Positions 15,986-48,974 of a stretch of DNA of 64,000 bases are shown one piece after another; position 1 is the stretch's first letter, and every line of letters begins with the position of its first letter. Origin of the DNA: Escherichia coli (GTDB lineage: Bacteria; Pseudomonadota; Gammaproteobacteria; Enterobacterales; Enterobacteriaceae); the NCBI RefSeq assembly GCF_003334405.1, contig NZ_QOWM01000004.1. One strand, 5' to 3'. The notes under the pieces were generated by a model. It was not told the origin of the DNA. It was given only the letters and a program-made list of their open reading frames with translations, and made no database searches. The position numbers and the translations under genes were made by a program.

Positions 15986-16073
15986 GTTCACTGCCGTACA
16001 GGCAGCTTAGAAATTCACAGGTAACATACTCCACCCGCCCACCATGTTCACTGCCGTACAGACAGATAAAATG
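15986..16073 (+). CRISPR. Orphan type I-F CRISPR remnant: two 28-bp repeats (second degenerate) flanking one 32-bp spacer; no cas genes in the window
   Basis: Repeat 1 at 15986-16013 is GTTCACTGCCGTACAGGCAGCTTAGAAA, the type I-F repeat as I recall it; spacer 16014-16045 is ttcacaggtaacatactccacccgcccaccat; repeat 2 at 16046-16073 is gttcactgccgtacagacagataaaatg; location between clpA and serW fits the known CRISPR3/4 site. Confidence 0.8.
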
Positions 16074-16116: not shown

Positions 16117-16204
16117 TGGCGGTGAGGGGGGGATTCGAACCCCCGATACGTTGCCGTATACACACTTTCCAGGCGTGCTCCTTCAGCCACTCGGACACCT
16201 CACC
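16117..16204 (-). tRNA. serW: tRNA-Ser (anticodon GGA), 88 nt with long variable arm
   Basis: Reverse complement reads GGTGAGGTGTCCGAGTGGCTGAAGGAGCACGCCTGGAAAGTG...GGTTCGAATCCCCCCCTCACCGCCA; encoded CCA end; T-loop GGTTCGAAT. Confidence 0.95.
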
Positions 16205-30953: not shown

Positions 30954-30973
30954 TACCCAATTTTTCTGAATCT

Positions 30974-30999
30974 AAAAAGCGCCTGCGGGCGCTTTTTTT
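30974..30999 (+). terminator. Rho-independent terminator downstream of serS
   Basis: agcgcc-tgcg-ggcgct hairpin followed by T7. Confidence 0.75.
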
Positions 31000-31191
31000 G
31001 TCTCCCTTTGATACCGAACAATAATTACTCCTCACTTACACGTAATACTACTTTCGAGTGAAAATCTACCTATCTCTTTGATTTTCAAATTATTCGATGT
31101 ATACAAGCCTATATAGCGAACTGCTATAGAAATAATTACACAATACGGTTTGTTACTGGAATCAATCGTGAGCAAGCTTGAGTGAGCCATT

Positions 31192-43841: not shown

Positions 43842-44699
43842 TTAATGGTGGTCGTTTTCACGCAGGTAAATGACCCAGTATGTCAACCCAACCAACAAAC
43901 CACCACCGATAATGTTGCCGATCGTAACCGGAATCAGGTTATCAGTGATGAAATTCATCACGGTCAGGTGAGAAAAATTTTCCGGTGCAGAACCGACTGC
44001 GGTCCAAAATTCCGGGGATGCGAAGTCGCGGATTACAATACCCATCGGGATCATAAACATGTTTGCGATACTGTGCTCAAAACCGCTGGCAACAAACATC
44101 GCGACCGGCAGCACCATAATGAACGCTTTGTCCATCAGGCTGCGGCCAGAATAACTCATCCATACTGCCAGACATACCATCAGGTTTGCCAGGATACCAA
44201 GACAGACGGCCTCAATAAAAGTATGGTGCACTTTGTGGTCGGCGGTTTGTAGGACGTTTAGTCCCCATTGACCATTTGCGGTCATATACTCGCCGGAAAG
44301 CCACATTAAAAGTACAAACAGCAGTGCGCCGACCAGGTTGCCAAAATAGACATTTAGCCAGTTTTTCGCCAACTGACCCCAGGTGATGCGCCCACTCGCC
44401 TTAGCAACAACAATCAACACGGTGGAAGTAAAGAGATCGGCTCCGCAGACAACACAAAGAATCAGCCCCAGAGAGAAGCAAATGCCGCCAACCAGTTTTG
44501 CCATGCCGAAGGGCATTGTGCCTGTGCCAGTGGTTGCTGTGATATAGAAGACGAATGCGATTGAGATGAAAACACCGGCGGTAATCGCCAGATAGAAAGT
44601 CTTAAGCGGATGTTTCGTTGCTTTATAGACACCCGCCTCTTCGGCCACTTTGGCCATTGCAGCAGGAAGTAAAAGATCAAAAGGGTTGTCAGCTTTCAC
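43842..44699 (-). CDS. focA: Formate channel FocA (formate-nitrite transporter family)
   Basis: ORF 43842..44873; the conserved N-terminus (V/M)KADNPFDLLLPAAMAKVAEEAG begins at a GTG at 44697-44699, so the gene initiates at GTG. Confidence 0.88.
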   Translation of the reverse strand: MKADNPFDLLLPAAMAKVAEEAGVYKATKHPLKTFYLAITAGVFISIAFVFYITATTGTGTMPFGMAKLVGGICFSLGLILCVVCGADLFTSTVLIVVAKASGRITWGQLAKNWLNVYFGNLVGALLFVLLMWLSGEYMTANGQWGLNVLQTADHKVHHTFIEAVCLGILANLMVCLAVWMSYSGRSLMDKAFIMVLPVAMFVASGFEHSIANMFMIPMGIVIRDFASPEFWTAVGSAPENFSHLTVMNFITDNLIPVTIGNIIGGGLLVGLTYWVIYLRENDHH

Positions 44700-44759
44700 A
44701 CTAACTCTCTCTTTATTAAGTCGGCGACGAGATACTAACAAAGCATTATAGATGAGAAA

Positions 44760-44773
44760 TTGATATAGATCAT
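44760..44773 (-). promoter_or_regulatory. FNR-type site (TTGAT-ATAG-ATCAT) in the focA-pflB promoter region
   Basis: 9/10 match to TTGAT-N4-ATCAA, about 65 bp upstream of the focA GTG; focA-pflB is known to be FNR-activated from promoters upstream of focA. Confidence 0.55.
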
Positions 44774-45104
44774 ATCTCGCCTGGCTTATAGGCCCGTAAC
44801 TCGCATGGTTTTTATGCAAATACGGAGTAAATATTTGATTATCCAAATAAAAATAAATTTTAAAAATTAACAAATGAGTTGAATTTTTTCCGCATCCTCC
44901 GCTAAAACAGTTAATTAAAAGGGAGCATCAGGCGAATAAAGTAACAATATCGATCGTATTTATTAAATACAAATTACCGATATTTAACCTTATAATTACA
45001 ATTATTTTATTAATGCAAATATATGTAAAGCGGGGCATTAAAAAAACGCCCCGTAATATAACTCAGACTAATCATTAAGCCTACATTGCGTAGGCTATTT
45101 GATT

Positions 45105-46865
45105 TTATTTTGCCCAGAATGCTGCTTTGGCGCGCTGCAGCTTTTCGTAGGCCTTCAACAACGACTGATGTGCAGCAAACGCGTGCAGATCGCTATCTAC
45201 CGGTTGCAGGCCGTAAAACGCCGCTTCGCCGCTCATTGCCGCACTGGCGGCTTCTACGGCATCTGCGCCGTACATGCGAACAAACGCATTCAGATATTGC
45301 AGCGGCTGGCGATCTTCTTCCTGTGCCAGTAATAACAACGTTTGCAGGCAGCGATAATAGTTGGCGCGTTCCGGACTAAATACTGATGAGTTAAACTCCA
45401 TCGTCCATTCGGTCCAGACCAGAGCCTGTTCCAGATCGCCACCAGCCAGCGCCAGCATGGCTTTTAATTCACCGATACGCAGGGTGTACCAACCGTTATC
45501 CGACCCGGTCGCCAGACCCAACAGCTCACGCACGCGGGTAAAGTCATCAAAACCTTCTTCATCCAGTTGCTCGATGAGGTTCAGGTAATCTTCTTTTTCC
45601 CACTCGCTGCCTGGTAGCGAAAGAATCGTTTCACGTAAATGGCTGCCCATACTGTTATTCGCGAGCCACAGATCTTCAGCCGGATAAATATCGGACATGC
45701 CAGGCACGATAATACGGCAAGCATAAACGCCCAGATGCTCGTAATCGGCAATATAAACTTCTTTATCTTCTTTGTTGAAGATAGCCATCAGTGTGGCGAA
45801 CTCTTCTTCCGTGGTGCCGGAGAAATTCCAGTCCACAAACGGATAATCGGCATCCTGCTTGAACAGGTCCCAGGAGATTAAACCGCTGGAATCGATAAAG
45901 TGCGTTTCGAGGTTGGTATGTTCAGCGACTTCTTCATCATCGAAGGTTGGCGGAGTAAACACATCCAAATCTTTCAGGCCACGACCTTGCAGCAGCTCGG
46001 TCACGGTACGTTCCAGTGCTACGCCAAAATCAGGATGCGCACCGAAAGAGGCAAAGCAGGTACCGTTAGCAGGATTGAACAGTACCACGCAAATCACCGG
46101 ATACTGGCCGCCAAGCGAACCGTCATAAGCGAAGATTGGGAAACCCTCCGCTTCCAGCGTTTCGATGGCTTCAACTACTGCTGGGTAACGCGCCAGCACG
46201 TCTGCCGGGATCTCTGGCAGGCTGATGCTTTCAGCAATAATGCGGTTTTTCACGTAGCGTTCGAAAACTTCAGACAATCCCTGAACGCGTGCTTCGTTGC
46301 GGGTATTACCTGCGGACATACCGTTGGAGACGTACAGGTTACCAATGATATTCATCGGAATATAAACGGTCTGATTGTCGGACTGACGCGTAAACGGCAG
46401 GCCGCAAATACCACGATCTTCGTTACCGGATTGTAGGTCAATCAGCATGCTGCCGGTCAGTTCATTCTCCGGATCATAAAACGCGCGCAGACGGTCATCG
46501 AGCAGCCCTTCTGGCACATCGTCATTTTCGGTCAGTGGGAACCATTTTTCGTTGGGATAATGCACGAACGGACCGTTGGCGATGGTTTCGCCCAGCCAGA
46601 AGTCCGCAAAAAAGTAGTTGGTTGAGAGACGCTCGAAATATTCACCGAGTGCAGAAGCCAGCGCCGCTTTCTTGGTTGCGCCTTTACCGTTGGTAAAACA
46701 CAGTGCGCACTCTTTGTCGCGAATATGTACAGACCAGACGTTAGGCACGGGATTCAGCCAGGAGGCCTCTTCAATCTGAAAGCCGAGGTCTGAAAGTTTT
46801 TGCTGGAAGCGAGCGATGGAATCTTCCAGAGCGGCATCTTTGCCGGGGATAAATGTTTGCGTCAT
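45105..46865 (-). CDS. ycaO: YcaO-domain ATP-dependent protein (linked to RimO-dependent methylthiolation of ribosomal protein S12)
   Basis: ORF 45105..46898 trimmed to MTQTFIPGKDAALEDSIARF (ATG at 46863-46865). Confidence 0.85.
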   Translation of the reverse strand: MTQTFIPGKDAALEDSIARFQQKLSDLGFQIEEASWLNPVPNVWSVHIRDKECALCFTNGKGATKKAALASALGEYFERLSTNYFFADFWLGETIANGPFVHYPNEKWFPLTENDDVPEGLLDDRLRAFYDPENELTGSMLIDLQSGNEDRGICGLPFTRQSDNQTVYIPMNIIGNLYVSNGMSAGNTRNEARVQGLSEVFERYVKNRIIAESISLPEIPADVLARYPAVVEAIETLEAEGFPIFAYDGSLGGQYPVICVVLFNPANGTCFASFGAHPDFGVALERTVTELLQGRGLKDLDVFTPPTFDDEEVAEHTNLETHFIDSSGLISWDLFKQDADYPFVDWNFSGTTEEEFATLMAIFNKEDKEVYIADYEHLGVYACRIIVPGMSDIYPAEDLWLANNSMGSHLRETILSLPGSEWEKEDYLNLIEQLDEEGFDDFTRVRELLGLATGSDNGWYTLRIGELKAMLALAGGDLEQALVWTEWTMEFNSSVFSPERANYYRCLQTLLLLAQEEDRQPLQYLNAFVRMYGADAVEAASAAMSGEAAFYGLQPVDSDLHAFAAHQSLLKAYEKLQRAKAAFWAK

Positions 46866-46994
46866 GAAAATCACTTTAGTCGTACGGAAAGCGCGCAATA
46901 ATACGGGTTTTATCTCAAAGGCGCTATCACCGCCGCCATGCCGATGAACTGTTGACTATGCTTTTAGCGGATAAACCACGTTAAGAGCATAAAA

Positions 46995-47687
46995 ATGAAG
47001 GCGTTCGATCTCCACCGTATGGCATTTGATAAAGTGCCTTTTGATTTCCTTGGCGAAGTTGCACTACGTAGTCTTTATACCTTTGTACTGGTCTTTTTGT
47101 TCCTCAAAATGACCGGAAGACGCGGTGTGCGGCAGATGTCGCTGTTTGAAGTTTTAATCATTCTGACGCTGGGATCAGCGGCGGGAGATGTGGCGTTTTA
47201 TGATGATGTGCCGATGGTCCCGGTACTTATCGTCTTTATTACTCTGGCGTTGTTATACCGCCTGGTAATGTGGTTGATGGCGCACAGTGAAAAACTGGAA
47301 GATCTTCTGGAAGGCAAGCCAGTTGTCATTATTGAAGATGGCGAGCTGGCCTGGTCGAAACTCAATAACTCCAACATGACGGAATTTGAGTTCTTTATGG
47401 AGCTACGATTGCGTGGCGTGGAGCAGCTGGGGCAGGTACGTCTGGCGATTCTCGAAACCAACGGGCAAATCAGTGTCTATTTCTTTGAAGATGACAAGGT
47501 GAAACCGGGTTTACTTATTTTACCCAGTGATTGTACGCAGCGTTACAAAGTGGTGCCGGAGTCGGCGGACTATGCCTGTATTCGTTGTAGTGAAATCATT
47601 CATATGAAAGCGGGGGAAAAACAATTATGTCCGCGCTGTGCAAATCCAGAATGGACGAAGGCAAGTCGGGCAAAACGGGTGACCTGA
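46995..47687 (+). CDS. ycaP: DUF421-family membrane protein
   Basis: 230-aa ORF with N-terminal transmembrane helices; position between ycaO and serC. Confidence 0.78.
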   Translation: MKAFDLHRMAFDKVPFDFLGEVALRSLYTFVLVFLFLKMTGRRGVRQMSLFEVLIILTLGSAAGDVAFYDDVPMVPVLIVFITLALLYRLVMWLMAHSEKLEDLLEGKPVVIIEDGELAWSKLNNSNMTEFEFFMELRLRGVEQLGQVRLAILETNGQISVYFFEDDKVKPGLLILPSDCTQRYKVVPESADYACIRCSEIIHMKAGEKQLCPRCANPEWTKASRAKRVT

Positions 47688-47885
47688 CAGTAAAAACATC
47701 GGCTTTTTGCTAATAATCCGAGAGATTCTTTTGTGTGATGCAAGCCACATTTTTGCCCTCAACGGTTTTACTCATTGCGATGTGTGTCACTGAATGATAA
47801 AACCGATAGCCACAGGAATAATGTATTACCTGTGGTCGCAATCGATTGACCGCGGGTTAATAGCAACGCAACGTGGTGAGGGGAA

Positions 47886-48974
47886 ATGGCTCAAATCTTC
47901 AATTTTAGTTCTGGTCCGGCAATGCTACCGGCAGAGGTGCTTAAACAGGCTCAACAGGAACTGCGCGACTGGAACGGTCTTGGTACGTCGGTGATGGAAG
48001 TGAGTCACCGTGGCAAAGAGTTCATTCAGGTTGCAGAGGAAGCCGAGAAGGATTTTCGCGATCTTCTTAATGTCCCCTCCAACTACAAGGTATTATTCTG
48101 CCATGGCGGTGGTCGCGGTCAGTTTGCTGCGGTACCGCTGAATATTCTCGGTGATAAAACCACCGCAGATTATGTTGATGCCGGTTACTGGGCGGCAAGT
48201 GCCATTAAAGAAGCGAAAAAATACTGCACGCCTAATGTCTTTGACGCCAAAGTGACTGTTGATGGTCTGCGCGCGGTTAAGCCAATGCGTGAATGGCAAC
48301 TCTCTGATAATGCTGCTTATATGCATTATTGCCCGAATGAAACCATCGATGGTATCGCCATCGACGAAACGCCAGACTTCGGCGCAGATGTGGTGGTCGC
48401 CGCTGACTTCTCTTCAACCATTCTTTCCCGTCCGATTGACGTCAGCCGTTATGGTGTAATTTACGCTGGCGCGCAGAAAAATATCGGCCCGGCTGGCCTG
48501 ACAATCGTCATCGTTCGTGAAGATTTGCTGGGCAAAGCGAATATCGCGTGTCCGTCGATTCTGGATTATTCCATCCTCAACGATAACGGCTCCATGTTTA
48601 ACACGCCGCCGACATTTGCCTGGTATCTATCTGGTCTGGTCTTTAAATGGCTGAAAGCGAACGGCGGTGTAGCTGAAATGGATAAAATCAATCAGCAAAA
48701 AGCAGAACTGCTATATGGGGTGATTGATAACAGCGATTTCTACCGCAATGACGTGGCGAAAGCTAACCGTTCGCGGATGAACGTGCCGTTCCAGTTGGCG
48801 GACAGTGCGCTTGACAAATTGTTCCTTGAAGAGTCTTTTGCTGCTGGCCTTCATGCACTGAAAGGTCACCGTGTGGTCGGCGGAATGCGCGCTTCTATTT
48901 ATAACGCCATGCCGCTGGAAGGCGTTAAAGCGCTGACAGACTTCATGGTTGAGTTCGAACGCCGTCACGGTTAA
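47886..48974 (+). CDS. serC: Phosphoserine / phosphohydroxythreonine aminotransferase
   Basis: 362-aa [29 protein letters not shown]. Confidence 0.96.

Follow-up and report, generated by a model that had tools for sequence, protein, structure and literature searches.

The ycaO gene of Escherichia coli raises the question whether a stand-alone YcaO enzyme, encoded between focA and ycaP, modifies a peptide encoded in its immediate vicinity, assists in the modification of ribosomal protein S12, or acts on another protein encoded elsewhere on the chromosome. The window considered here, i.e., the whole stretch of 64 kb that was analysed, is E. coli K-12 DNA. The 4 kb from 44000 to 48000 are 100% identical at the DNA level to E. 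coli K-12 MG1655, and a match to this stretch is present in each of the 5426 complete E. coli genomes (5426/5426).

The ycaO gene and its neighbours

According to the list of open reading frames, the ycaO frame runs from 45105 to 46898 on the minus strand. It contains an in-frame ATG at 46865, from which the translation of the minus strand yields a protein of 586 residues starting with MTQTFIPGK; the N-terminal stretch reads MTQTFIPGKDAALEDS, and the frame closes with a TAA stop codon at 45105-45107. In the RefSeq annotation, this coding sequence corresponds to WP_001295344.1 and has exactly the extent listed in Table 1. The coordinates proposed in a preliminary description of the locus, made from the sequence alone, are thus exact with respect to the reading frame, the translation and RefSeq, and the strand, which had been left unstated, is the minus strand.

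Table 1. Features of the ycaO locus, numbered along the window.
Feature	Position	Strand	Basis
focA, formate channel, first gene of the focA-pflB operon, downstream of ycaO	43842-44699	-	NF008069, 634 bits; RefSeq
AT-rich intergenic DNA between focA and ycaO, with the conserved focA-pfl upstream regulatory region	44700-45030		Composition; column conservation
Two stable RNA hairpins, 45070-45104 and 45031-45053, just past the end of ycaO	45031-45104	-	RNA folding; inverted repeats
ycaO coding sequence, 586 residues plus stop codon	45105-46865	-	ORF; Pfam; NF040716; PDB 4Q84; RefSeq
YcaO ATP-binding domain	residues 59-391		Pfam
C-terminal YcaO_C/TPR-like dimerisation domain	residues 407-581		Pfam
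Divergent ycaO/ycaP intergenic region, 129 bp, presumed promoters	46866-46994		ORF list
ycaP, YetF/DUF421 membrane protein, divergent, upstream of ycaO	46995-47687	+	Pfam YetF_N and DUF421

The encoded protein is recognized by the Pfam models YcaO (PF02624, 4e-75, model positions 1-325 of 325) and YcaO_C (PF18381, 3.5e-65). It scores 917.2 bits with the NCBIfam equivalog NF040716 ('YcaO_for_S12'), for which the cutoff is 700 bits, over positions 1-570 of the 571 of the profile, and its 574.8 bits with TIGR00702 (cutoff 75.65) place it in the YcaO superfamily. A full-length match of 1356 bits links it to the crystal structures of E. coli YcaO (PDB codes 4Q84, 4Q85 and 4Q86). Compared to the E. 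coli enzyme EcYcaO (UniProt P75838), which these structures represent, the protein of the window is the same protein, devoid of any difference. Since the gene of the window codes for EcYcaO and not for one of its relatives, the system is already known: it is the familiar stand-alone ycaO of E. coli K-12, the textbook case on which the YcaO family was founded.

The focA and ycaP genes had been named as the neighbours of ycaO in the preliminary description, in agreement with the RefSeq annotation, which lists pflB and then pflA beyond focA. More generally, RefSeq annotates only housekeeping genes across the window, namely poxB through ftsK, dmsABC, pflAB, serC, aroA, rpsA, msbA and kdsB. The conservation of this arrangement was followed in 80 loci, the best 80 kept from a scan of genome contigs with a diverse alignment, all from Enterobacterales and with YcaO proteins 79-99% identical to that of the window. 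The gene order reads serC-(ycaP)-ycaO-focA-pflB-pflA. The focA gene follows ycaO in 74 of the 80 loci, and some of the others end near ycaO, so that their downstream flank is possibly not visible. Where the upstream flank is visible, i.e., in 77 loci, ycaP occurs beside ycaO in 43 and is lacking in 34. The YcaP protein carries in its C-terminal tail (residues ~194-218) a CxxC-X17-CxxC arrangement resembling a zinc ribbon, to which only weak Pfam zinc-finger matches were obtained. As an obligate partner of YcaO, ycaP was rejected, since it is missing from 34 of the 77 informative loci and from the distant loci.

These distant loci harbour four YcaO relatives sharing 67%, 54%, 53% and 48% identity with the E. 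coli protein, each in a different housekeeping context; near these four, no focA-pfl, DUF421, TfuA, ThiS or E1-like genes were found. As judged from this distant synteny of four loci, standing alone is characteristic of the family to which these relatives belong, and the vicinity of ycaO and focA-pfl is an accident of gene order confined to one lineage.

Elsewhere in the window, an orphan mini-CRISPR occupies positions 15986-16073 of the plus strand, between clpA and a tRNA-Ser gene (16120-16204, minus strand). Its first repeat, GTTCACTGCCGTACAGGCAGCTTAGAAA, is a perfect repeat of type I-F (Rfam CRISPR-DR4, 50 bits) and is followed by a 32-nt spacer and a degenerate second repeat, GTTCACTGCCGTACAGACAGATAAAATG. 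No cas genes occur in the 64-kb window, and this element is presumably what remains in K-12, as already known, of the I-F CRISPR locus between clpA and infA. A full-length match to the STnc130 sRNA family (RF02084) is located upstream of dmsA at 30967-31101 on the minus strand and scores 140 bits, the gathering threshold being 55. The same Rfam scan of the whole window detected nothing in or next to ycaO.

Flanking DNA and the search for partner genes

The spacer separating focA from ycaO measures 405 bp (44700-45104) and has a GC content of 38%. Its ycaO-proximal part contains the two hairpins of Table 1, which fold at -30.1 kcal/mol with a z-score of -5.2 relative to shuffled sequences, and the stem of the second one shows partial conservation across 64 loci of Enterobacterales. 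Judging from the folding of the sequence, these hairpins probably represent the transcription end of ycaO and separate this gene from focA-pfl. On the focA side, conserved blocks upstream of focA include an FNR-box-like sequence, TGATCTATATCAA, at 44760-44772, read by eye against the consensus. The FNR box has the consensus TTGAT-N4-ATCAA. Matches to sigma-70 promoter and terminator consensus sequences between 44600 and 47100 were as numerous as in shuffled sequence, and no match to the sigma-70 consensus was found in the 129-bp ycaO/ycaP spacer. The focA-ycaO spacer naturally attracts IS insertions; in E. coli strain KFu015, an IS1A element resides inside it (positions 1054-1751 of locus L090). 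Recurrent adaptive IS insertions in this intergenic region have been reported from evolution experiments in the mouse gut, and attributed to focA expression (PMC4674774).

Small open reading frames of at least 10 residues were searched for in both spacers, and their persistence was checked across the 80 Enterobacterales loci. The 129-bp ycaO/ycaP spacer offers a single frame of 10 residues, which is not conserved, and no frame of at least 20 residues confined to it. The focA-ycaO spacer contains seven frames of 10-36 residues, among which a 12-residue frame (44735-44773, minus strand) recurs in 55 of the 80 loci and a 21-residue frame (44805-44870, plus strand) in 23 of them, and a 36-residue frame (44928-45038, minus strand) occurs in E. 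coli only. In an alignment of 65 spacers, both recurring frames fall within blocks directly preceding focA whose conservation is uniform. The identities at the first, second and third codon positions amount to 0.88/0.94/0.80 for the 12-residue frame, 0.69/0.69/0.64 for the 21-residue frame and 0.46/0.41/0.42 for the 36-residue frame, compared to 0.90/0.95/0.55 for the ycaO coding sequence in the same genomes. The two recurring mini-ORFs are thus devoid of the third-position relaxation typical of real coding sequence and are by-products of conserved promoter DNA; none of the three frames is a credible gene. As candidate precursor peptides, the 12- and 21-residue frames were rejected for the same reasons, i.e., their location in focA promoter DNA and their lack of codon periodicity.

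With respect to partner enzymes, no E1-like/ThiF-like, TfuA or McbC-type dehydrogenase genes are annotated by RefSeq across the 64-kb window. The ycaK gene, coding for a NAD(P)H oxidoreductase ~5 kb away from ycaO, and a nitroreductase gene located ~5 kb from a distant YcaO homologue were considered as dehydrogenase partners, and both were rejected, since neither is adjacent, co-oriented or recurrent and thioamidation requires no dehydrogenase. The view that no partner of a RiPP system stands next to ycaO consequently holds for the whole window as regards partner genes and for both flanks as regards small frames: the search that the preliminary description had suggested disclosed no conserved, coding-like precursor-peptide frame across the 80 loci.

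The substrate of YcaO

The first clue to the substrate came from the 2.0 Å map of the E. coli ribosome published by Watson et al. in 2020 (PMC7550191), in which a backbone thioamide was recognized at Met82 of ribosomal protein uL16. YcaO was proposed in that work as the prime candidate for its formation, genetic evidence for the role in S12 modification being described as lacking (PMC7550191). Subsequently, Rice et al. (Biochemistry 2026, PMC13063428) screened EcYcaO against 4403 E. coli proteins with AlphaFold3. Only uL16, uL29 and YcaO itself reached an ipTM of at least 0.8 in this proteome-wide screen, and the loop of uL16 containing Met82 was modelled into the active site of YcaO (PMC13063428). 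Ribosomes of a ΔycaO strain lose a uL16 modification of ~16 Da, identified by HR-MS/MS as the Met82 thioamide, and co-expression of uL16 with YcaO results in complete thioamidation, whereas E202A and other ATP-site variants fail to bring it about (PMC13063428). Purified MBP-EcYcaO modifies full-length uL16 only in the presence of Na2S, MgCl2 and ATP, sulfide being a non-physiological donor in this assay (PMC13063428). The enzyme binds full-length uL16 with a Kd of 9.8 nM, nanomolar affinity being restricted to the full-length protein; peptides of 11 and 21 residues derived from uL16 are no substrates, and the folded full-length protein is needed (PMC13063428). The YcaO orthologues of Klebsiella and Pseudomonas likewise thioamidate uL16 (PMC13063428). 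In this respect, the literature shows that ycaO is necessary in vivo and that, in vitro, the purified enzyme carries out the reaction with no more than ATP, Mg2+ and sulfide. The ΔycaO strain grows like the wild type in LB and M9, and the deletion suppresses the slow growth of a ΔroxA strain in minimal medium (PMC13063428).

The protein encoded in the window displays the residues and the charge expected from an enzyme of this type. A low pI, complementary to the basic uL16, is considered diagnostic of uL16-type YcaO proteins and amounts to 4.4 for EcYcaO (PMC13063428). The window protein, with a calculated pI of 4.38 and 92 Asp and Glu residues for 42 Lys and Arg residues, falls on the uL16 side of this low-pI criterion of Rice et al. 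2026. A pI below 6 also characterizes 83 of the 90 full-length family representatives drawn from the best 150 matches among the 1.84 billion cluster representatives searched. The acidic ATP/Mg2+-binding residues E75, E78, E199 and E202 (4Q85 numbering) are all present, together with R286. In an alignment of 22 diverse YcaO relatives extending down to 34% identity, S71, E199, E202, R203 and R286 are conserved in at least 90% of the sequences, and replacement of E202 by alanine impairs the activity of EcYcaO (PMC13063428). A tblastn search of the 64-kb window for the uL16 gene (rplP), with a provisional query sequence that makes the result a lead, returned chance-level matches only. Owing to the apparent absence of the uL16 gene from the window, YcaO is considered to act in trans, the gene of its substrate being located far away. 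Nothing that can be read from the sequence of the window contradicts this function, and the ycaO product is, with high confidence, the uL16 Met82 thioamidase, which acts in trans instead of modifying a peptide encoded nearby.

The mechanism proposed for this reaction involves a homodimeric, strongly acidic YcaO which, by an ATP-dependent activation of the backbone amide, would work in trans on folded uL16, the substrate gene rplP being presumably located elsewhere on the chromosome. The broad electrostatic surface of YcaO would bind the basic uL16, and the Arg81-Met82 loop would enter the active site. By analogy to other YcaO enzymes, the Met82 carbonyl would be attacked by a sulfide equivalent, the tetrahedral oxyanion would then be O-phosphorylated by ATP, and elimination of phosphate would leave a thioamide beside the peptidyl transferase centre. 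The physiological role may consist in a tuning of translation, exerted jointly with the hydroxylation of Arg81 by RoxA.

Other explanations of the locus have to be weighed against uL16 thioamidation. The role formerly assigned to YcaO, that of an accessory to RimO in the β-methylthiolation of Asp88 of uS12, is very unlikely to be its primary one. It is conveyed by the names of NF040716 and of the RefSeq product, and PMC13063428 summarises two observations in its favour, the co-purification of YcaO with tagged uS12 and a minor decrease of the uS12 modification, from 99% to 84%, in a ΔycaO strain. However, RimO needs no other protein to modify an S12 peptide in vitro, the modification is wholly abolished in a ΔrimO strain, AlphaFold3 assigns to YcaO an ipTM of 0.31 with uS12 and 0.16 with RimO compared to 0.8 with uL16, and a direct ATP-dependent catalysis by YcaO has been demonstrated on uL16 (PMC13063428). 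The effect on S12 may be indirect, via ribosome assembly. From the preliminary description, which had linked a housekeeping role to the RimO-dependent modification of S12, the stand-alone housekeeping gene is retained, whereas the S12 function is superseded by the thioamidation of uL16 at Met82 (PMC13063428). The S12 wording of the RefSeq and NCBIfam names probably led to that assignment. The product name "S12 methylthiotransferase accessory factor" has been propagated to thousands of ycaO orthologues. The database name thus still spreads a weak inference dating from 2011, and readers relying on the annotation or on received knowledge will repeat the S12 role; the ycaO product is correctly described as a "ribosomal protein uL16 Met82 backbone thioamidase".

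The genomic surroundings of ycaO have suggested further possibilities. It is highly improbable that a neighbouring gene contributes the sulfur, the candidate being the four-Cys membrane protein YcaP whose gene shares the 129-bp region with ycaO, or that the adjacency of ycaO to focA/pfl in Enterobacterales couples thioamidation to anaerobic metabolism. A functional meaning of the ycaO-focA-pflB-pflA arrangement, for instance because the pyruvate formate-lyase system would supply YcaO with a further substrate or because of an anaerobic co-regulation, is given even less credit. This arrangement is nevertheless frequent among the Enterobacterales loci, its presence in Gammaproteobacteria has also been noted by Watson et al. 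(PMC7550191), and the only other known protein thioamide occurs in MCR, another anaerobic enzyme (PMC13063428). Against it stand the four distant family members deprived of focA-pfl nearby, the stable hairpins and the promoter-bearing 405-bp spacer interposed between ycaO and focA-pfl, the independent transcription of focA-pfl (Sawers 2005, as cited in PMC7550191), the occurrence of the uL16 thioamide in aerobically grown cells (PMC7550191) and the outcome of the AlphaFold3 screen, in which no protein other than uL16, uL29 and YcaO attained the ipTM threshold (PMC13063428). As for a small precursor peptide encoded in the flanks, which YcaO would convert into a cryptic RiPP-like azoline or thioamide product, its probability is practically negligible. 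The 405-bp spacer does contain mini-ORFs, two of which recur in other Enterobacterales, but these two overlap focA promoter DNA, their third-position identity exceeds that of the ycaO coding sequence, and no E1-like, RRE, dehydrogenase or TfuA genes are annotated in the 64-kb window. Moreover, the SagD model remains far below its cutoff, the PxPxP motif is absent from YcaO, short uL16 peptides are not accepted by EcYcaO, and the absence of a small ORF nearby has likewise been remarked upon by the authors of PMC13063428.

YcaO among the related systems

With the azoline cyclodehydratases SagD, McbD and LynD (TIGR03604), EcYcaO has in common the YcaO ATP-binding fold and the chemistry of amide O-phosphorylation. 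It differs from them by the lack of an E1-like/RRE partner, of a dehydrogenase and of a precursor peptide, and the TOMM SagD model TIGR03604 gives only 43.7 bits for the window protein, compared to a cutoff of 219.25. A PxPxP C-terminus reportedly defines the azoline-forming group of YcaO proteins. The motif occurs nowhere in the window protein, which ends with KLQRAKAAFWAK. The statement of the preliminary description that ycaO does not belong to a biosynthetic cluster is borne out by this low score, by the missing motif and by the missing partners.

The OsmC-YcaO fusions (TIGR03549) form a close sister group of E. coli YcaO, from which they differ by an additional N-terminal OsmC domain of ~147 residues containing two Cys. 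The window protein aligns with positions 148-722 only of the TIGR03549 profile and, with 681.9 bits for a cutoff of 900, stays outside this group. A single OsmC fusion, P0123 (locus L084, 7001-9190), was encountered among the YcaO relatives of 650-820 residues. This protein of 729 residues comprises the Pfam domains OsmC, YcaO and YcaO_C. The YcaO portion shares 54% identity with EcYcaO along its entire length, has a pI of 4.72 and scores 867 bits with NF040716, above the cutoff, and the OsmC domain of P0123 keeps two Cys residues, in ..SSAMCAAYF.. and ..MERCTVKR... The fusion hints, as a speculation about the family, at an OsmC-like thiol protein that would relay or protect sulfur where OsmC and YcaO are separate proteins.

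The methanogen YcaO (methanogenesis marker 1, TIGR03266; e.g., MJ1094, PDB code 6PE3), which acts on a Gly of McrA, is only distantly related to the window protein, as indicated by 39.1 bits with TIGR03266 (cutoff 365) and by a match to 6PE3 with E = 7e-4. EcYcaO differs from it by an extra C-terminal TPR-like domain of ~150 residues. The methanogen enzyme also works on short peptides, and TfuA frequently accompanies it, whereas EcYcaO needs folded full-length uL16 and works without TfuA, a protein which is not encoded in E. coli nor near any predicted uL16-type YcaO (PMC13063428). With TIGR03266 under its cutoff and no TfuA in the 64-kb window, the window protein also stands apart from the TfuA-associated thioamide-forming YcaO proteins. 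Both the E. coli and the methanogen enzymes nevertheless rely on ATP and a sulfide equivalent (PMC13063428), and both thioamidate the backbone of a protein and not a RiPP peptide.
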